Part shown: positions 296 through 62,625 of the stretch, piece after piece | Layout: the number at the start of each line of letters is the position of its first letter | How positions within the stretch are numbered: position 1 is the stretch's first letter | IMG/VR virus record: IMGVR_UViG_3300028558_000001 | Location: 96,001-160,000 of that record | Source of the DNA: a virus | Length of the DNA: 64,000 nt | Reading direction: 5' to 3' (one strand) | Notes under the pieces: model-generated | Database searches by the model: none | What the model was told of the DNA's origin: nothing | What the model saw: only the letters and a program-made list of their open reading frames with translations | Position numbers and translations under genes: made by a program

Positions 296-709
296 TTGAG
301 TACAGTTTCAAATAATATTTTAAGTTTTCCAGTAAATGATAATCTTCCTTATACGCCTCCAAAGACGAGGGAACAAATTAGAGAGAACATTGATTTAATC
401 AGACAGATTCATGTTCAGGAAGCTCTTGAAATTGTTATGGAACTAATGTTTACCCATCTGCAATTAGCCGGGTTTAATATTGATGATGAGAATACTCCTT
501 CACAAAGAGAAGGCGCTTTCATCGCAGAATCCATTCGGTCAGTTCTCCTAAATATCTATGGGATTGATCATCCCTTCCAGAAGATTTGTGACAACATCTT
601 CGTTGAACGGAAAGATGGTTCTCTTGATATTGCTAAGGAAATTGCATTAGTTCTTAAGGAAGATAGTCCTGAACCTGAATTAGAATTAGAATTAGAAAAT
701 GAGGAATAA
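296..709 (+). CDS. hypothetical protein
   Basis: 137 aa ORF, TAATG coupling to rnh. Confidence 0.7.
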   Translation: MSTVSNNILSFPVNDNLPYTPPKTREQIRENIDLIRQIHVQEALEIVMELMFTHLQLAGFNIDDENTPSQREGAFIAESIRSVLLNIYGIDHPFQKICDNIFVERKDGSLDIAKEIALVLKEDSPEPELELELENEE

Positions 710-1572
710 TGATAATTATTGATATTAGTCAAACCATTATTAGTAATATAATGGTTTCTCCTGAAATGAAAGAATCAAAGAACCTAAATCTTGAAATGGT
801 TCGCAGTATGGTTCTAAAGACAATCAAATCATTCAATAATAAGTTTAAGAATGAGTATGGTAAGTTAGTTATTGCCGTCGATGCTGGTAATACATGGCGC
901 AGGGAATATTTTCCTTATTATAAAGTAAAGCGTCGTGAAGCACATGCAGAGTCAGTAATTGACTGGAAGAAAGTCTATGAAATTATCAGGATCATCAAGA
1001 ACGAATTGAAAGAAACCTTTCCTTATCCGGTGATTGAAGTTGAAGGAGCCGAAGCTGACGATGTTATTGCTTCTCTCTGTAAACATTTTGGTGAAGAAGG
1101 ATTTGGTGCTTCTGAAAAGATTTTGATCTTATCAAGAGACAAAGACTTTATCCAGCTACACAAGTATTCTAATGTGGATCAATTTGATCCTATTGGAGAC
1201 AAGTGGATTAGAAATATTGATCCAGAATTATATCTCAAAGAACATATCATCCGTGGTGATTCTGGAGATTCAATTCCAAACATCTTATCTGCTGATGATT
1301 GTTTTGCCTTAAAGATTAGGCAGAAGTCAATCATGACCAAGAAAGTTGATGTATGGCTAGGACAGGATTGGAAAGAATTCTGTGACGAAGATACATTGAA
1401 AAGAGTAGAAAGAAACACCACTCTTATTGATCTAACTAGAATTCCTCCAGCTATTGGGGTTAAGGTCATTGAAGAGTATTCCGCCCAACAAGGTAAACCC
1501 CGCAATAAGATTTTTAACTATATGATTAAGAATGGTTTAACAAGTCTTATGGATGACTTACAGGATTTTTAA
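709..1572 (+). CDS. rnh: T4-type RNase H (5'-3' exonuclease/flap endonuclease)
   Basis: IIIDIS, WRREYFPYYK, EADDVIA, SRDKDFIQL, GDSGDSIPN motifs. Confidence 0.95.
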   Translation: MIIIDISQTIISNIMVSPEMKESKNLNLEMVRSMVLKTIKSFNNKFKNEYGKLVIAVDAGNTWRREYFPYYKVKRREAHAESVIDWKKVYEIIRIIKNELKETFPYPVIEVEGAEADDVIASLCKHFGEEGFGASEKILILSRDKDFIQLHKYSNVDQFDPIGDKWIRNIDPELYLKEHIIRGDSGDSIPNILSADDCFALKIRQKSIMTKKVDVWLGQDWKEFCDEDTLKRVERNTTLIDLTRIPPAIGVKVIEEYSAQQGKPRNKIFNYMIKNGLTSLMDDLQDF

Positions 1573-1836
1573 ATGAATTTAGAAGAATTTTTAAAAAGAT
1601 ATACTGATGAAGTAGATACAGAAGATACTTTTAGATCACTGTTTCTTTCTGCTCAGTTAATGGAAGATTTAAAGGCAATTCAGGGTGTTGATGCTATTGA
1701 AGAGTTATATCAGATTATGAAGGTAGAGTTTACTGCTAAGGCTTCTTTAGAATTACTTACCGTAGATATGCTTGAATATATCTTAGAAAGAAAGAGAGAT
1801 AATGGTACAGAAGATAATCAACAGAACACTCAATAA
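1573..1836 (+). CDS. small protein carrying a gp23-like segment (DLKAIQGVDAIEEL)
   Basis: 17/37 aa identical to gp23 segment SIELAQDLKAIHGLDAETELANIIQGELLAEINRELV in this window. Confidence 0.75.
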   Translation: MNLEEFLKRYTDEVDTEDTFRSLFLSAQLMEDLKAIQGVDAIEELYQIMKVEFTAKASLELLTVDMLEYILERKRDNGTEDNQQNTQ

Positions 1837-2245
1837 TTTTTTTAATAGTGTTCAAGAAACCGAAATTGGTTCAGGAGTTAGATTTCCTATCAGAGCAACT
1901 ATTAAGTTGATTCTAGAAAATCAAGAATTGTTTTCTTTAAAGACAACAGCAGATGCACCAACATTTCTTTATAATGACCTTGCATATCTTGTTATGTCAA
2001 AGGCATTAAAAACTAAATTTGATTTATCTCAGACAATTGATGATAGGTTAATGAATCCAAAGCATTATGAAGATGATTATATAGATTTGGTAGTTAATGA
2101 GTTAGTATCCCTTATTAAAAGAGAAACAGAAGATGGTTCAATTTATATTATGTATGCACCAATCATTCTTGTGAAAGCTATTGATCCTGTTACCTATCAG
2201 CCTCAGATTGCATTTAAGACTAGATATGGTCTAGTAAAGAAGTGA
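1802..2245 (+). CDS. protein with a C-terminal gp23-like segment (DPVTYQPQIAFKTRYG)
   Basis: 18/28 aa identical to gp23 YVPLQMVRAVDPNTYQPKIGFKTRYGMV. Confidence 0.75.
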   Translation: MVQKIINRTLNNFFNSVQETEIGSGVRFPIRATIKLILENQELFSLKTTADAPTFLYNDLAYLVMSKALKTKFDLSQTIDDRLMNPKHYEDDYIDLVVNELVSLIKRETEDGSIYIMYAPIILVKAIDPVTYQPQIAFKTRYGLVKK

Positions 2246-2306: not shown

Positions 2307-2765
2307 TTGCTATCAATTTCTGAAATTCTCGGCAAGTATGCCGAACTAAAGACCAAGGATGAAAAGATTGCTTGGTTACGTAAGAATGAATCATATGCTT
2401 TAAAGATGGTTCTCGTTGGTGCATATGATCCTAACGTTGTTTGGGATTTGCCAGAGGAAGACCCTAAGTATACTCCAAGTCCTTATCTAGATCAGGAGTC
2501 AATGCTCTATAAGGAAGCACGTAGATTTTATCTATTCACTCCTAATGGTAATCCAAACATTTCTAAGGAAAAGAAGATTTTACTTTTCACTCAGCTACTA
2601 GAAATGGTTACTCCGTCAGATGCTACTATGTTACTACATATGCGTGATAAGAAGTTACCATATGCTGGTCTAAATGCCAAGAGCATTAATGAGGCTTTCC
2701 CCGGTCTAATTCCAATGGTTGAATCATCTAAGGAAAAGAAGAAACTAGATTCTGAAACAACCTAA
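2307..2765 (+). CDS. conserved T4-like phage hypothetical protein
   Basis: ISEIL...WDLPE...LYKEARRFYLF...LLEM pattern typical of the gene found after rnh in environmental T4-like phages; AGGAG SD, TTG start. Confidence 0.7.
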   Translation: MLSISEILGKYAELKTKDEKIAWLRKNESYALKMVLVGAYDPNVVWDLPEEDPKYTPSPYLDQESMLYKEARRFYLFTPNGNPNISKEKKILLFTQLLEMVTPSDATMLLHMRDKKLPYAGLNAKSINEAFPGLIPMVESSKEKKKLDSETT

Positions 2766-17516: not shown

Positions 17517-18092
17517 TTATGTTAATTGCAAACTCCAAGTAAAGTAGGAAATGCCTACAGTTACTTTCATTAAATTAGAACCATTTTCCCAACTTAAAGG
17601 TATTTCTTCTAAGTATGTAGGAAACGCCTTATTTAATGTATGGGTCATGACTGGATTTCCCTCATTTTCAAAAGTCTTAATTGTTATACTAGTTGTATAA
17701 TTGTCTTTATATGCTAATTGAAATGAAGGGATTCCTCCATTATTTATAGTAGAAAATTGAATTATATAGTTTAACCACCCATAAAAGAAGTTGTATATTT
17801 CTCCATTGGCGTCTGAAATAAAGGATATTGTACTATCAGTATATGTTATATTATATGGCATCTTCTGTGCTGGACCGATACCATAAATTAGGTTATCTCC
17901 AGTCTGTATTTTTAATCCCGGTAAAGCAGTATCACATGCCCTAAACGTCATTAGCTTAGCTAGATCAGATGATCCCATTGTAGAAATTTTACCTAACGCC
18001 GCATTAACAGGAATGGACACTTCAAATTTGTTATTTTGAAGTGTTCCATAATTTCCTATATTTTGTTTAAATGCGTTAACGTCAAACGCCAT
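17517..18092 (-). CDS. baseplate/tail tube initiator-like protein (gp54/gp48 type)
   Basis: NKFEV, LPG, KMPY, AFPT; start at ATG 18092 (TAATG overlap). Confidence 0.7.
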   Translation of the reverse strand: MAFDVNAFKQNIGNYGTLQNNKFEVSIPVNAALGKISTMGSSDLAKLMTFRACDTALPGLKIQTGDNLIYGIGPAQKMPYNITYTDSTISFISDANGEIYNFFYGWLNYIIQFSTINNGGIPSFQLAYKDNYTTSITIKTFENEGNPVMTHTLNKAFPTYLEEIPLSWENGSNLMKVTVGISYFTWSLQLT

Positions 18093-18544
18093 TAAGGATG
18101 AACTTTCTGTACTAATGTTATAGCGGTATAACCATATTGACCGATCCACATTAATACAGCACCGCCACCAACAGCTAACCAAATATATTTTGTTAGGGAA
18201 TCAAGCTTGCTACCAAGAGAATCAATTTTAGTAGATAATACTTTAATGTCTTCATCTTTCTCGGTTAACTTCTTTTCTACGGTTGCGTAATGATCCTTGA
18301 GCTTATTATCTAGTTCTGTACGGCTTTTATCGAGTGAGTCTCTATAATTATTATTGTTCTGTTCGTGATATGCCAAACGCTGTTCGTGAACTGCTAATAG
18401 ATTAGTTACATTAGATGAAACCTCAGTTAACTTATCTATCGTAATATCCATCTTTTCAACTAGAATAGATATTTGTGCCATGTTTTTTTGAAGCTCCGAT
18501 ACGTCGTCTCGTATTTTTTCTACACGTTCTACTGACACGATCAT
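18092..18544 (-). CDS. coiled-coil protein with C-terminal membrane anchor
   Basis: LAVHEQRL motif, C-terminal hydrophobic helix. Confidence 0.65.
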   Translation of the reverse strand: MIVSVERVEKIRDDVSELQKNMAQISILVEKMDITIDKLTEVSSNVTNLLAVHEQRLAYHEQNNNNYRDSLDKSRTELDNKLKDHYATVEKKLTEKDEDIKVLSTKIDSLGSKLDSLTKYIWLAVGGGAVLMWIGQYGYTAITLVQKVHP

Positions 18545-44952: not shown

Positions 44953-45646
44953 TTTTGTTTCTCCTACTTGAGACTACGTTTTAATACTTGAGCCTACTTG
45001 CTCAACTTTTGTAACCACATGTTACAAAACTATTTATGTAGCTGTATTAGCTACCTTATTCTTTTCCTCATATTCTTTTCTGAGTTTAAATACTTCTGCG
45101 GATGGTGGAACCAATGGAGGCATACCGGGACCATCCCAAATAAAATTAGGCATAACTCTACGAACTAACTCTATTCTTGTATTAGATGATTCCGTCATTC
45201 TCGACTACTCCTAAATCAGCTAACTTATCATCATAATTATTTGAAATAGTATAATGATTAATGTTTGCAGGAATAGCACGATGCTCGGCTAGAATATCTC
45301 TAATAAGATAAATCTGATCACAGACATAACGAATGGTGTTTCTTACAACCTCATCATTATTACCTTCATATAGATCATATAGAGCACCTTCTAGATTTGA
45401 ATCTACTGAATAATCAACATAATACTTATCTCCATTCTCATCATCCCTGATCTGTTCAGGAGGAAACAAGATAGAAGAAATCTTCTCTAACTTTAGCTGA
45501 TCTTTTGTTTTTGGATTCTTCTTAAAGAAATTGAACATTCTCACTCCATAATTATTGTTTCATCTTACGACCTTATTAAAGTGCTAACCTCCGAAACCAT
45601 AAATAGACTTATTTTCATAGCTATTTATGGTTTCGGAGTGCTTATG

Positions 45647-54540: not shown

Positions 54541-55182
54541 TCATTTTATACCTCTTTTAATTCTTCCACGGTTCCAAGTATCATCTGGTGCTGTTTTTGA
54601 AAACTTTTCTTCAAAACCATTATTCCACCACATTACCCCGTCTTTTCTTTCTCTCAATATATTTTTAACTTCTTCTGAATGTTTCTTACCATAACTAGAT
54701 TCACTTATCTTCTGTCTGGTTTCTTCTGAACGACATTTACTAAATTGAGGGTGATTTTCACCAGAATTTAATTTGCTTAGTTTTTGTTTAGTCTCATCTG
54801 AGCGTATTTTACCTTTATTGGCTTTACTGATATTAGCTGCTCTATTCGGAGCAGCCGATATTTTCTGACCCACTGTCAATAACTTATTAGGATCAGAAGA
54901 CCAATGACCAACAGTAACATGTAAATTAAAATATCTAATTCTAACTTCTTCTGGTTTAATCATATTAAGATAACGCTGTTCTTCTAAAAATAATTCCTGT
55001 CGGTTAGTATACACTCGTTTTATGATACGTCTTTTAAAATCTTCTGGTCTTCTTCGATAGGTATTTCTCATCCAGTTAGAAGAACAAATATACCCGTCAT
55101 CTTCTGTTCCCCAATGGCAACCTACATAATATCTTTTATCACGCTTATCAAACCAAATATAGACAAAACCATATTTTTCCAT
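54541..55182 (-). mobile_element. free-standing GIY-YIG (Seg-like) homing endonuclease with NUMOD3 repeats
   Basis: GFVYIW...YYVGCH; RSDETKQKLS / RSEETRQKIS / HSEEVK repeats; between genes 46 and 47. Confidence 0.85.
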
Positions 55183-55223: not shown

Positions 55224-56279
55224 TCAGAACTTTCCCATCTGATTCATGGCATTGGTGAATAAGTCGCCCATCAAAGTTTTCATACCAATTTTGTCGATTG
55301 GATCATCTAGCTCGTCAATGTAATGAGTGATGATAGAAAGAGTGCTTTCCAGTTCGATATTCTCGATGGAATCAAATAGCACGATCTTTGAGGCTTCTGG
55401 AATTATAGTATAGTCACATGTTCCGGCATTGTCAAGCTCGGCCACAAATTCATCAAATTTAGATTGACTCTGTTTATTCTTAGGATTTACCTTAAGAATC
55501 ATTCCCTCATATGCTTTTAAATCAATTTCTTGATCTTCGTCATAATCAACGATAGCATACATCTTGAATGGATTTTCAATGAATTCCAATTCTCTCGATT
55601 CAGTATCGAAAATATGAAATCCCCTTGGATCATTATAATCAGCCCAAGTGAACTCATAAGGAGCGCCAAGATACTCAATATTGGAATTACGAGACTTAGT
55701 ATGATAATGGCCTGAAAAAACCCTATCGAATTTCTTATAGACGTTGGCACTTTCGCCATGCTGTGATACAATTCCTTTGTAAAATTCAAAACCAGCTAAC
55801 TCAAGATGGCCGTAGACTACTTGTGCATCTGTAGCTTTAATTAGATTATAGGTATCATTTCTATTTTCTTCACAAATCCAAGGAACAAGCAGCATTTTTA
55901 AATTATCGAATACTACTTCTGTTGCTGTTTCATATAAATTAAATGGGTACTTGACGTTCTCAGAATGAAAGAGAACGTCAAGTGAATTTGGCTTTATGGT
56001 GCGAGAATGAAACTGATCATGATTGCCCATAATAAAATGGGCGTCAATACCCATATTAAGAATTGGATCGAGAAACGTCTTATGGAGCGAATCCGCCGCA
56101 AGATAGTTGATGAATTTACGAGAGTCAACTAAATCTCCACCATGAATGAGGGTCGTTACCCCGCGCTCCTTGAGGGCAGGGAAGAACACCTTATCATAAA
56201 ATTTACGAAAGTAATCAAGAAAAATTGGGGAGGCCGATTTGACTCCCCAATGTGTATCATTTATTAAAGCAATTTTCAA
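55224..56279 (-). CDS. 47: recombination endonuclease subunit gp47
   Basis: NDTHWG, GDLVD, GNHD, GHLE, SGHYH. Confidence 0.95.
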   Translation of the reverse strand: MKIALINDTHWGVKSASPIFLDYFRKFYDKVFFPALKERGVTTLIHGGDLVDSRKFINYLAADSLHKTFLDPILNMGIDAHFIMGNHDQFHSRTIKPNSLDVLFHSENVKYPFNLYETATEVVFDNLKMLLVPWICEENRNDTYNLIKATDAQVVYGHLELAGFEFYKGIVSQHGESANVYKKFDRVFSGHYHTKSRNSNIEYLGAPYEFTWADYNDPRGFHIFDTESRELEFIENPFKMYAIVDYDEDQEIDLKAYEGMILKVNPKNKQSQSKFDEFVAELDNAGTCDYTIIPEASKIVLFDSIENIELESTLSIITHYIDELDDPIDKIGMKTLMGDLFTNAMNQMGKF

Positions 56280-56621
56280 TTTGATTCCTTATTCAATAGG
56301 AGGGATAGCGATAGCTTCCTCTAATTTCTTTTTAAAATATTCAATATCATCCCAAATGATTGCCTCTTCTGGCGTAGGAAGAGTTGTTACAAATGAACCT
56401 TTATCTTTTTCAGTAGGAAGCCATTCATTCACACACATTATTTCTTCCTTGAAGGTGATTTTGTAAATATACTATTTTTCTCAGCCTGTGTCAAGGCGCT
56501 TTGGCAATATTCAATAATAGCCTCAAGACGAATCTGATAATTGTAGTATTCGTTCTGGTTGATGGGCTTGGCGTTAATCTTCTGTGCTAGATCAACTACG
56601 ATCTGCGGAATTAAATGGTCG

Positions 56622-57182
56622 TTATTCATCTACTACTTCCTCTACTGTTAGTTTCTTATTTTTCTTGGCTTTGACTTGATCTTCTATTCTTTTTTCATAA
56701 TCACTGATAACAGAATAGTGATAATCCTGATTGAATGTAACATTCTTATCATGGGATAACATATTTTCATTAATTAAATCAATCTGATGCATCATATCAA
56801 AATTCTTATGCTTAACATAATGCTGCTTCATTTCTTTCTCTGCTCGATTGACGAAAGCGTTCCAAGCAATCTGAGTAAAGTAAGCGAATGGGTTCTGTGT
56901 TTCATGACCAATATCGAAGTTACCGATCTTCTCAATACATTTTTCGATTGCATCTGAAATCATTTCCTGCTTATAATCGTCAGTATAGGCGTAGAAGCGG
57001 GAATGTTTCGTTAGCTTATTGGAAATTTGTATGATACACTCTCCAATATAGTTCATGACCTTATATGGTACTTCCTCTCCTGCCCTAGTAGCCTTCTGAT
57101 ATTCCACTAGATTCTCGTAGAAAGTACGGCCATTGATGTAGTTCTTATTGGTTCTTGGCTTATTACTTCGTGTACGTTTCAT
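56622..57182 (-). CDS. 55: late sigma factor gp55
   Basis: YIGECI, EMISDAIE, NPFAYFTQIAWNAF. Confidence 0.93.
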   Translation of the reverse strand: MKRTRSNKPRTNKNYINGRTFYENLVEYQKATRAGEEVPYKVMNYIGECIIQISNKLTKHSRFYAYTDDYKQEMISDAIEKCIEKIGNFDIGHETQNPFAYFTQIAWNAFVNRAEKEMKQHYVKHKNFDMMHQIDLINENMLSHDKNVTFNQDYHYSVISDYEKRIEDQVKAKKNKKLTVEEVVDE

Positions 57183-57220
57183 ATTACCTCTAAAAATGTT
57201 ATAAAAATTGTAAAAAGGAC

Positions 57221-57249
57221 TTGACATGTCTTTAAAAACTTGTTATAAT
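57221..57249 (+). promoter_or_regulatory. consensus sigma70 promoter, antisense to flanking genes
   Basis: TTGACA-17 nt-TATAAT in the gp55-uvsW intergenic region. Confidence 0.7.
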
Positions 57250-59919: not shown

Positions 59920-60669
59920 ATGTCAGATAAAAAGTTTTTTATCTATATCATAGGGTCAACTCATCAACTTAGACAACCATATGATACTTGTTATATGTAT
60001 TACGGCGACAATATGGAAGTCGAATGGAATAGATGTTCTAATGCAGATTCTAAAATTGGACGTTATATTAGAATGAATAATTTGAGCTTTGATAAAAACT
60101 TCATGGTCATTCATTTTGGTAGTTTCGATCAATGCCGTGAAATATACAAACAGAATAGACCAGTTCATGGATTGGGTTTAAATGATGAAGCTGATGAAGA
60201 ACATTACAAAAAGAAAGTGTCTAACTGGAAAGCCCCAACTAAAAAGCCTTGGGAAATGACCAGAGAGGAATATAAGGCATGGGAAAAGAGACAGTCTGGA
60301 GAAAATCTAGGTAAAGGAAAGGGATTTAACTTTAAAGGACAATTGAATCCCAATGCCGTTATCTGGAAGATAACTGATCCAGAGGGAAATGAAACTATCA
60401 TTGAAGGTGGAATCAGAAATTACTGTAATGAACATAATATATCTGAATTTACATTAAAGGATCATCTAGGAGACGTTATTCAGGAACCAAACTATAGTTC
60501 TGATAACGGTCAATGTAATGGATATATCCCTAAGAGCGAAGAATTACATAAAAGAAGGCTTAATACGGTAGGATTTAAACTTGAACGCTTGACTCCGAAG
60601 AAGTTTAGGTATAGAAAGGACTGGCAAAGAGATTTGGGGATAAGGGTTTATAAGAACCTTCGTCCATAA
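59920..60669 (+). CDS. homing-endonuclease-derived protein (degenerate GIY-YIG-like N-terminus, NUMOD-like C-terminus)
   Basis: FFIYII...YMYYG; NPNAVIWKITDPEG...IRNYCNEHNI. Confidence 0.45.
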   Translation: MSDKKFFIYIIGSTHQLRQPYDTCYMYYGDNMEVEWNRCSNADSKIGRYIRMNNLSFDKNFMVIHFGSFDQCREIYKQNRPVHGLGLNDEADEEHYKKKVSNWKAPTKKPWEMTREEYKAWEKRQSGENLGKGKGFNFKGQLNPNAVIWKITDPEGNETIIEGGIRNYCNEHNISEFTLKDHLGDVIQEPNYSSDNGQCNGYIPKSEELHKRRLNTVGFKLERLTPKKFRYRKDWQRDLGIRVYKNLRP

Positions 60670-61269: not shown

Positions 61270-62625
61270 TCACATAAGATGCTGCACCATAACTCTACGA
61301 TAGTAGAGATTTGAGTCTTGTACTAGAGCGCCTGAACCAACGGTTAGACCCTGAGCGAATGGGTTGGCTACCATGCCGTAACGAGTCTTGAAACCAATCT
61401 TTGGCTGATAGGTGTTTGGATCAACTGCACGGACCATCTGTAGTGGAACGTATGGGCAGTAGAATAGACCAGCATCATACTGATTGCCGCCCTTTAGACC
61501 TAGGGTTAGATAGTTGCCAGTTGTATATGGATCAATATAGACCTTAATACGACCGTTTAGAAGACCAGCAAAAGTATTACCAGTATCATCAACGCCTAGC
61601 TTGATAGCTAGTTCTGGAGTATAATCTAGTAGTTCGGCCATGTTTAGAGCAGAAGCCACGTCTGATGAACAGATCATGATGTTGCCCTTACCACGTCTGG
61701 TTGTCTTAGCGATCTGGTTAGCTTCACGCTCGATCTGATAGACTAGACCCTTGAACTTTTCAACTGACCAACGACCATTTGAGTCAACGTCTAGATCGAA
61801 GAAACCAGCAGTTGTGGTATCGGTCTGAGCGCCGGGAACGGCTGTGATGTTAATTGTACGAACTAGTTCGCGGTTAATTTCAGCTAGAAGTTCGCCCTGA
61901 ATAATATTGGCTAGTTCTGTTTCAGCATCAAGACCGTGAATTGCCTTTAAGTCTTGTGCTAGTTCGATTGAATAAGAACCCTGTAGCCCGCGTGAACCGG
62001 CTGTTACAGTTGTCTTTTCAATGTCGAAAGCGACTTCTGGGAATACAGAGTTACCTGATCCTAGACCTTCGGCCTGTGCTGTTGAGATTGAACGACCATA
62101 GTTGTATAGTGCTGCACCAGAGTTGTTAGAAACTGATGGAGTAGTACCAACCTGACCACCACCTAGAACGGAAGTATTTGCAGTACCAACGTTTGCACCA
62201 GCAAATGAAGTGAAAGCAGTATTAACTTCGTTATAGAAGTTTTCTGGACCAGTCTGTGAAGCATAGCGTGAACGCATTGCGAAGATGATACCAGTTGGGC
62301 CAGTCATTGGCTGGACGCCAGCAATATCATAAGCAATTAGGTTAGGCATTGCTCTACGAACTAGAGAAATTAGAATTGGATCGAAGGTGTCGATAGCACC
62401 GGAACCGGCTGTTGATGAAGATGTACCCATTGAGTTGGTTGGTGCGCCTTCGAATAGTGTCTGGCGTGAACCAGCAGAAGAAGCGGAACCTAGCTCACGG
62501 ACCATGTTCTCAAGAACAGTAGCCGTTACGAACTTGCGGTGATTATCCTTAATCTCGGGCATTTCGTCGTGCTCTAGAATTGGATTCCACTTATTAAAAA
62601 GGTCTTCTTTTAGATACTGTTGCAT
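61270..62625 (-). CDS. 23: major capsid protein gp23
   Basis: LISLVRRAMPNLIAYDIAGVQPMTGPTG, DLKAIHGLDAE, GFKTRYG. Confidence 0.98.
   Translation of the reverse strand: MQQYLKEDLFNKWNPILEHDEMPEIKDNHRKFVTATVLENMVRELGSASSAGSRQTLFEGAPTNSMGTSSSTAGSGAIDTFDPILISLVRRAMPNLIAYDIAGVQPMTGPTGIIFAMRSRYASQTGPENFYNEVNTAFTSFAGANVGTANTSVLGGGQVGTTPSVSNNSGAALYNYGRSISTAQAEGLGSGNSVFPEVAFDIEKTTVTAGSRGLQGSYSIELAQDLKAIHGLDAETELANIIQGELLAEINRELVRTINITAVPGAQTDTTTAGFFDLDVDSNGRWSVEKFKGLVYQIEREANQIAKTTRRGKGNIMICSSDVASALNMAELLDYTPELAIKLGVDDTGNTFAGLLNGRIKVYIDPYTTGNYLTLGLKGGNQYDAGLFYCPYVPLQMVRAVDPNTYQPKIGFKTRYGMVANPFAQGLTVGSGALVQDSNLYYRRVMVQHLM

Follow-up and report, generated by a model that had tools for sequence, protein, structure and literature searches.

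A predicted domain-deleted relative of the T4-type major capsid protein encoded behind RNase H in an uncultured T4-like phage

The closest described relatives of the gene reported here are the T4 capsid proteins gp23 and gp24 (Pfam PF07068; PDB 1YUE, 7VRT, 5VF3), which have 450-520 residues and are encoded in the head module. In the present study, we analysed 64,000 nucleotides (nt) of a viral genome (the window; bases 96001-160000 of the virus record IMGVR_UViG_3300028558_000001), in which two small overlapping open reading frames (ORFs), ORF1 and ORF2, follow the RNase H gene. The source record has 176,660 bp with direct terminal repeats, is rated complete and has a G+C content of 37%. The 147 residues of ORF2 include an E-loop return strand, a spine helix and a C-terminal P-domain hairpin homologous to those of gp23 and gp24, and the ORF2 model showed the same P-domain topology as T4 gp24 (1YUE; Z 8.7 over 126 residues). 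In contrast to the T4 proteins, ORF2 has no A-domain, no insertion domain and no recognisable cleaved N-terminal propeptide region, and it lies among replication genes. Because its distribution is patchy and not universal, ORF2 cannot be the usual shell subunit.

SaPIbov5 likewise has a non-canonical HK97-fold protein, Ccm (PDB 7RWZ), which acts in addition to the main capsid protein and matched the ORF2 model with Z 5.1. However, Ccm has the full HK97 fold, is encoded by a satellite and co-assembles into small capsids, whereas ORF2 is encoded by the phage and lacks the A-domain, and the likeness seen between the two is structural. Encapsulins (Z 6.1-6.7) resemble ORF2 in using the HK97 fold outside the virion, but they keep the A-domain, assemble shells and show no sequence similarity to ORF2. 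In the case of Gol and Lit, a short conserved piece of gp23 is by itself read by a host defence (PMC3014915), and a 54-amino-acid (aa) ORF of the present phage similarly copies a conserved N-terminal motif of gp23. Gol, however, is part of gp23 and activates the defence, and any link of the small ORFs described here to EF-Tu or to a Lit-like protease would rest on analogy.

ORF2, its predicted structure and its family

Our results indicated that ORF2 is very probably a working gene whose product is a free-standing paralogue of the T4-type major capsid protein from which domains have been deleted, that it belongs to a rare, unnamed family (here called mini-gp23), and that ORF1 is a separate, lineage-specific insertion. 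The features on which the comparison of ORF2 was based are given below in window coordinates.

1802..2245, + strand: ORF2, 147 aa, mini-gp23 without A-domain or insertion domain (Pfam, hhalign, AlphaFold, structural match, homologue P0004)
1982..2125, + strand: ORF2 aa 61-108, E-loop return strand and kinked spine helix, corresponding to gp23 204-253, degenerate in this lineage (hhalign, model)
2135..2239, + strand: ORF2 aa 112-146, C-terminal P-domain beta-hairpin with an FKTRYG-type motif, corresponding to gp23 386-420 (BLASTP, hhalign)
61270..62625, - strand: gp23, full-length major capsid protein, 451 aa, Pfam Gp23 459.9 bits over the whole profile; the reference for all comparisons

The gp23 of this phage shared 60-65% identity with its counterparts in Stenotrophomonas phage DLP6, the Sinorhizobium phiM12 group and Methylophilales phage Melnitz. 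Because of this kinship, the phage was assigned to the non-enteric T4-like myoviruses, of which it is an uncultured member.

In pairwise BLASTP, residues 112-145 of ORF2 aligned with gp23 386-419 at 20 of 34 identical positions (E 1e-12). The Pfam Gp23 profile (PF07068) scored 26.9 bits against a cut-off of 24.4, and the match covered profile positions 311-350 of 376 only. When the ORF2 family was aligned with the gp23 profile by hhalign, ORF2 61-146 was placed on gp23 204-420 (99.7%, E 1.3e-25), so that ORF2 resembled gp23 at profile level beyond the BLASTP motif. The single long gap in this alignment corresponded to gp23 ~256-385, which is the A-domain (roughly 130 residues). As the A-domain is missing, the hairpin of ORF2 directly follows the spine helix.

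The AlphaFold model of ORF2, built from a 14-sequence alignment, had a pLDDT of 89.7 and a pTM of 0.83, with a strand at residues 65-74 and helices at 75-84 and 89-110; the 147-residue model contained no A-domain. In a full-chain comparison with 48,161 solved chains, T4 gp24 (1yue_A) was the top match (Z 8.7, 126 of 147 residues, root-mean-square deviation 3.3 Å), and it was followed by ~45 HK97-fold capsid or encapsulin chains. A full-chain aligner was needed for this result, as the Foldseek search of the PDB returned a 33-36-residue hairpin in T4 gp23 only (E 0.09). With Foldseek against BFVD, one unnamed 138-residue protein (E 1.4e-4) was obtained, and several small uncharacterised proteins from large phages matched weakly. 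The family alignment, the hhalign gap, the model and the structural matches together indicated that ORF2 is a trimmed mini-gp23. In the model, the N-terminal helices, a stub of the E-loop, the spine helix and the P-domain beta-sheet are retained, and the A-domain and the insertion domain are gone.

When 1.84 billion cluster representatives were searched exhaustively with HMMER, about 14 clusters of ORF2-related proteins with 150-240 residues were obtained, and all 14 family members matched Pfam Gp23. The only close relative was P0004 (149 aa), which was 46% identical to ORF2 over the full length, and about a dozen further relatives of 167-237 aa aligned with most of ORF2, beyond its tail. The family is defined by a contiguous E-loop return strand, spine helix and C-terminal P-domain hairpin (alignment A1), and ORF2 shows this arrangement; in the less diverged members, the return strand and the spine-helix signature run straight into the hairpin motif. 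The C-terminal capsid motif was the best conserved part among the relatives of ORF2, and the invariant residues Y118, P120, P134, K139 and R141 are all located there. The P-loop motif was conserved in most members, the N-termini varied strongly, and the spine-helix signature of gp23 was poorly kept in ORF2 and P0004. In P0006, P0008 and P0016, a CxxC motif precedes the conserved domain on its N-terminal side.

The genes on either side of the two ORFs are conserved and were identified by Pfam.

709..1572, + strand: rnh, T4-type RNase H, the conserved upstream gene (5_3_exonuc_N 70.5 bits, RNaseH_C 46.7 bits)
2307..2765, + strand: DUF6433 gene, the conserved downstream neighbour (DUF6433 80.8 bits)

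In the contig of the closest relative (L011), rnh (73% identical) is followed by P0004 and then by the DUF6433 gene (77% identical). P0004 is intact there and starts at the same Met as ORF2, on a TAATG junction directly after rnh, and ORF1 is absent. In a more distant contig (L013; rnh 40% identical), rnh is followed directly by the DUF6433 homologue, a 75-aa gene and phoH, and there is no mini-gp23. Because L011 lacks ORF1 and L013 lacks both ORFs, the two are nested insertions at the rnh/DUF6433 junction. In other contigs, the mini-gp23 gene was found before a clamp-loader gene (L015) or between a gp55-like gene and gp47/46-like genes (L016). All the informative contexts, namely the window, L011, L015 and L016, were T4-like replication or recombination gene clusters, and none was a head module; five other contigs were too short or uninformative.

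The rate of non-synonymous change (dN) between ORF2 and P0004 was 0.55, compared with 0.19 for both neighbours (rnh and the DUF6433 gene). Since the synonymous rate (dS) was saturated for rnh and ORF2, dN alone could be compared, and its elevation does not indicate neutrality. These results suggested that ORF2 evolves fast; its codon usage is gene-like in its own frame, and it is a real accessory gene. When three family members were searched by tblastn against 50,697 deposited phage records, full-length gp23 genes were found and no mini-gp23. A further candidate, L071, was rejected as an ordinary gp23, and when family members were used in a word-index profile search and in scans of IMG/VR, the C-terminal motif of gp23 swamped the results. 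No paper describing a mini-gp23 family was found in full-text literature searches. As a protein, ORF2 is of a known kind, but its domain-deleted, free-standing form is new.

An earlier sequence-only reading of this DNA had described both ORFs as small genes, located directly behind RNase H and about 59 kb from the head genes, and too short for a gp24-type vertex protein. Our analysis agreed with these points, and both ORFs are intact and gene-like and do not look like decaying copies. The upstream gene is rnh by Pfam and belongs to a replication-gene cluster; the frameshifts or neutral decay in relatives that would have refuted the earlier reading were not seen for ORF2, whose 149-aa homologue in L011 is intact and begins at the same Met; and its 147 residues compare with about 400+ in a gp24-type vertex paralogue, from which it also differs by a locus far from gp23. 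Nor does ORF2 resemble a T4-type major capsid protein gene in the usual sense, as it has no A-domain, lies ~59 kb from gp23 behind rnh and does not occur in every T4-like phage. The same reading would also have counted a lack of preferential conservation of the motif residues among homologues against itself, but the C-terminal motif was preferentially conserved. It had also stated that the residues flanking the motifs show no similarity to gp23, which failed for ORF2 at the level of profiles.

ORF1 and further small copies of virion proteins

In a tblastn search of gp23 against the whole 176-kb genome, exactly three extra matches were obtained at E <=1e-3, namely ORF1, ORF2 and the 54-aa ORF, and the genome contained a single full-length Gp23 match. 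Copies of portal and sheath segments were found by an all-against-all comparison of the genome's ORFs. The features are as follows.

1573..1836, + strand: ORF1, 87 aa, orphan, predicted helical; starts at the base after the rnh TAA stop, and its last 35 nt overlap ORF2
1648..1758, + strand: ORF1 aa 26-62, segment resembling the gp23 spine helix (gp23 aa 219-255; BLASTP, tblastn, hhalign)
45034..45198, - strand: third gp23-like small ORF, 54 aa, resembling gp23 aa 86-129, a conserved N-terminal motif (BLASTP, tblastn)
56289..56438, - strand: 49-aa ORF, copy of a portal segment (portal aa 317-363), 18/47 identical, Pfam Portal_T4 23.4 bits (cut-off 22.9)
Genome 87663-87941 (L020:664-942), - strand: 92-aa ORF, free-standing tail-sheath C-terminal domain, about 8 kb before the window

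An insertion of 229 nt occupies bases 1573-1801 and is absent from L011; ORF1 reads on from it into the start of ORF2 in another frame. ORF1 26-62 was identical to gp23 219-255 at 17 of 37 positions (pairwise BLASTP E 3e-7); the same region was recovered with E 1e-3 in the tblastn search of the genome, and hhalign of ORF1 against the gp23 profile gave E 3e-5. Against deposited phages, tblastn of ORF1 produced 218 weak matches, nearly all inside gp23 genes, with a database-wide E of 0.3-1; the spine-helix region of gp23 was the sole likeness that ORF1 showed. Among 5.8 billion proteins in the 47-153 aa range, ORF1 found itself only; no homologue was found in IMG/VR and no match to Pfam Gp23. 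A weak match (E 0.006) to a PHROG family annotated as nucleotide kinase was otherwise unsupported and was rejected. The single-sequence AlphaFold model of ORF1 consisted entirely of helices and was of low confidence (pLDDT 49). The codon-usage score of ORF1 was 0.42 bits/codon, compared with 0.37 +/- 0.18 for real genes, and no off-frame window reached the score of ORF1. An open frame of 87 codons has a chance of about 0.2% at this base composition, and an AGGA, a good Shine-Dalgarno sequence, lies 7 nt before the ATG. Because of the gene-like codon usage, the long open frame and the AGGA, we think that ORF1 is probably expressed. It is suggestive, though not evidence, that ORF1 carries a better copy of the spine helix than ORF2 and P0004, in which this signature has degenerated.

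The sequence-only reading had taken the two genes for two different pieces of the phage's own gp23. The gp23 matches themselves were borne out (17/37 for ORF1 and 20/34 for ORF2), and its 27/30 DNA match was contained in a core match of 29/32 between 1664-1695 and the minus strand of 61924-61955. The division into two pieces was not: return strand of the E-loop, spine helix and hairpin are all present within ORF2, and ORF1 is no complementary piece but a separate lineage-specific insertion that repeats the spine-helix segment. Among more than 100 gp23s, the phage's own ranked 3-7 in likeness to the motifs of ORF1 and ORF2. Codon identity in the ORF1 motif was 10/17 against 7.4 expected from codon bias (P 0.13), and that in the ORF2 motif was 10/20 against 9.4 expected (P 0.47). 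The 20 identical residues of the latter are thus encoded by 10 same and 10 synonymous codons, in line with the synonymous differences reported earlier. An 8-codon core had 7/8 same codons, with a nominal P of 0.013 for a core chosen post hoc. A recent DNA copy of, or gene conversion from, the phage's own gp23 was not supported, as codon bias accounts for the codon identities and the own gp23 is not the best match. To speak of pieces of the phage's own capsid protein is too specific for the same reasons. Judged from these comparisons, the likeness is to the gp23 family consensus and not specifically to the own gp23, and the two ORFs are old, diverged members of the gp23 superfamily. As a separate observation, a 249-aa ORF without a Pfam hit lies beside gp23 on the opposite strand (window 59920-60669, + strand), and its N-terminus resembles a homing endonuclease, by eye only.

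The 54-aa ORF was identical to gp23 at 17 of 44 positions (pairwise BLASTP E 7e-9; genome tblastn E 5e-4). Its Pfam Gp23 score of 17.6 bits was under the cut-off, its codon usage is gene-like, and it is surrounded by small unknown genes. It had no database-wide match among deposited phages, and a PHROGs scan returned the major head protein family only. T4 gp61.1 (phrog_1823) was considered as a relative and rejected, as BLASTP gave no alignment with the 54-aa ORF and gp61.1 matched this gp23 with E 1.4. The N-terminal gp23 motif copied by the 54-aa ORF presumably overlaps Gol, the region that triggers the Lit protease, in T4.

The 49-aa portal-like ORF is flanked by a gp55-like gene (56622-57227) and by a gene for a gp47-like phosphoesterase (55224-56279), and it occupies the slot that holds the mini-gp23 gene in L016. 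The 92-aa ORF matched aa 620-676 of the phage's own 708-aa sheath with E 5e-8, and by tblastn it matched sheath genes of deposited phages with 93% coverage and E 4e-7. Other paralogues were also observed in this genome. The gene for a 215-aa protein (genome 167479-168126, - strand) lies between those for the portal and the sheath; over 196 residues, this protein shared 25% identity (E 9e-12) with a 221-aa protein encoded at window 17517-18182 (genome 113517-114182, - strand), and the latter is probably a tail-tube paralogue. The proteins encoded at genome 62420-63142 (- strand) and window 54541-55182 (- strand) share N-terminal 102 residues that are 70% identical (E 8e-56) and diverge beyond them; they form a modular paralogue pair.

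Possible functions of the mini-gp23 gene

In HK97-fold shells, the A-domain closes the capsomer centre. Our tentative preference is that ORF2 acts as a soluble mimic of unassembled gp23 which antagonises a host factor, most likely a capsid-sensing immune receptor. The mini-gp23 would be made together with the replication genes; it would be unable to polymerise and would show the conserved P-domain and spine-helix face of unassembled gp23, and by occupying the host factor that reads this face it would withhold the activating signal. ORF1, the 54-aa ORF with the N-terminal gp23 motif, the portal-like ORF and the sheath-domain ORF could be further members of a panel of such mimics. This interpretation was preferred because ORF2 is an accessory, fast-evolving gene in an early cluster, because a panel of copies of virion cores is present, and because host receptors for such cores are known. 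The start of ORF1 at the rnh stop and the overlap of its end with the start of ORF2 were counted in favour of an early, accessory context. Host STAND/Avs receptors recognise core folds that are conserved in capsid, portal-adaptor and tail proteins (bioRxiv 10.64898/2026.01.04.697583). For Lit, the trigger is the Gol segment of gp23 (PMC3014915). The wider proposal, in which small early proteins copying the gp23 P-domain, spine helix and N-terminal motif, the portal segment and the sheath C-terminal domain serve together as non-activating antagonists of host pattern-recognition receptors, is considered improbable.

Several observations weigh against a mimic of this kind. P0004 lacks the D-P-x-T part of the P-loop, and for ORF1 selection cannot be shown, as ORF1 has no homologue. 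A sub-clade consisting of P0009, P0010, P0011 and P0020 (L012 and others) carries twin-arginine-type signal peptides, with RR-x-F/L-L, a hydrophobic stretch and an A-x-A site (Pfam TAT_signal E 0.008 in one member). Because of these export signals, the members of the sub-clade look exported, and they would lie outside the cytoplasm, away from gp23 and from cytoplasmic sensors. Early expression of mini-gp23 is something we infer from gene order only: scans for promoters, terminators and TATAAATA gave nothing above chance near ORF1 and ORF2, where promoter-like sites did not exceed chance and neither a terminator nor a T4 late-promoter motif was found. As gp23 is one of the most abundant proteins made late in infection, very tight binding would be required for simple titration. 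The binding of mini-gp23 to any host protein is argued by analogy with other systems, and a complex prediction of gp23 (78-451) with ORF2, which scored 0.00 in a run without controls, is evidence neither for nor against binding. In addition, capsid sensors are switched on by binding their targets: truncated core-fold targets still activate Avs (bioRxiv 10.64898/2026.01.04.697583), and the Gol peptide alone activates Lit (PMC3014915). An early mimic could therefore trigger the defence and not block it.

With regard to the origin of the two ORFs, they could be the halves of a decaying or frameshifted gp23 duplicate, or a +1-frameshift product, as the frame of ORF2 is +1 with respect to that of ORF1, the two overlap by 35 nt and the fused motifs would stand ~162 residues apart, compared with 167 in gp23. 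However, a fused ORF1-ORF2 as a collinear C-terminal half of gp23 was rejected, because the L011 homologue without ORF1 keeps the Met start of ORF2 directly after rnh, and ORF2 alone aligns to gp23 204-420 and folds confidently. Intact family members occur in 14 clusters, the codon usage of each ORF is gene-like in its own frame, and the raised dN of ORF2 is accompanied by saturated dS. Such a duplicate is largely excluded, and its probability is very small. For ORF1 alone, it is possible, though rather doubtful, that the 229-nt insert is recombination filler that is open by chance, and that its gp23-like stretch is a functionless, fading relic. The lack of a homologue anywhere searched, the absence from L011, the low-confidence fold, the weak database-wide E-values and the TAA(A)TG-type microhomology at both junctions of the insertion would suit this explanation. 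It accords less well with the low chance of such an open frame, with codon usage equal to that of real genes, and with a good Shine-Dalgarno sequence before a start that abuts the rnh stop; moreover, ORF1 has diverged far from every known gp23 and has yet kept the motif, unlike the prediction of neutral decay.

With regard to function, interference with or regulation of assembly is a possibility that we regard as nearly as likely as the mimic. ORF2 has kept the parts through which subunits and capsomers contact one another in HK97-fold shells, and a mini-gp23 could bind gp23 or the scaffold through the E-loop stub and P-domain contacts as a cap or dominant-negative subunit; because the A-domain is missing, it could not complete a capsomer. 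It might thus set the timing of head assembly in the phage itself or ruin the capsids of a T4-like competitor in the same cell, and the sheath-domain and portal-segment ORFs may act likewise on tails and portals. The retention of the P-loop motif in most family members is consistent with such a role, as is the free-standing sheath C-terminal domain, which is real; the patchy distribution, variable slots and fast evolution suit phage competition as well as anti-defence, and a precedent for a capsid homologue that redirects assembly, SaPIbov5 Ccm (PDB 7rwz), is among the structural matches. On the other hand, the phage's own heads would be poisoned too unless its gp23 were resistant, of which there is no sign, and the motif is not specially matched to the own gp23; the genes sit with replication genes and not with head genes, and the sub-clade with export signals does not fit. 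A further possibility is that the P-domain module was recruited for a job that has nothing to do with capsid partners, for example as a small binding protein or a membrane- or periplasm-associated protein, in which the gp23-like motifs persist only as the folding core of the domain. The twin-arginine-type signals in one sub-clade and the N-terminal CxxC in others suggest diverse locations, the family's invariants (Y, P, P, F, K and R, all in the hairpin at the C-terminus) belong to core strands, little of the spine-helix signature survives in ORF2 and P0004, and the HK97 fold is used outside viruses, with encapsulins among the structural matches. Nevertheless, recruitment of this kind leaves unexplained both the co-resident copies of the gp23 N-terminal motif, the ORF1 spine helix, the portal segment and the sheath C-terminal domain, and the occurrence of all known members in T4-like phages that have gp23; we consider it unlikely.

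Among the molecular patterns read by bacterial immune receptors, the principal ones are major capsid, portal and tail proteins. To our knowledge, the ways in which phages cope with the sensing of structural proteins, other than by point mutation, are largely unknown. ORF2 is also the smallest natural HK97-fold derivative of which we are aware, and it is of interest for how far this fold can be trimmed and yet stay stable. The mini-gp23 described here offers a concrete candidate, either for a counter-measure that works by protein mimicry or for a weapon directed at competing phages. If the panel of small virion-core copies did act as proposed, it would represent a general protein-mimicry counter-defence aimed at structural-protein sensors.

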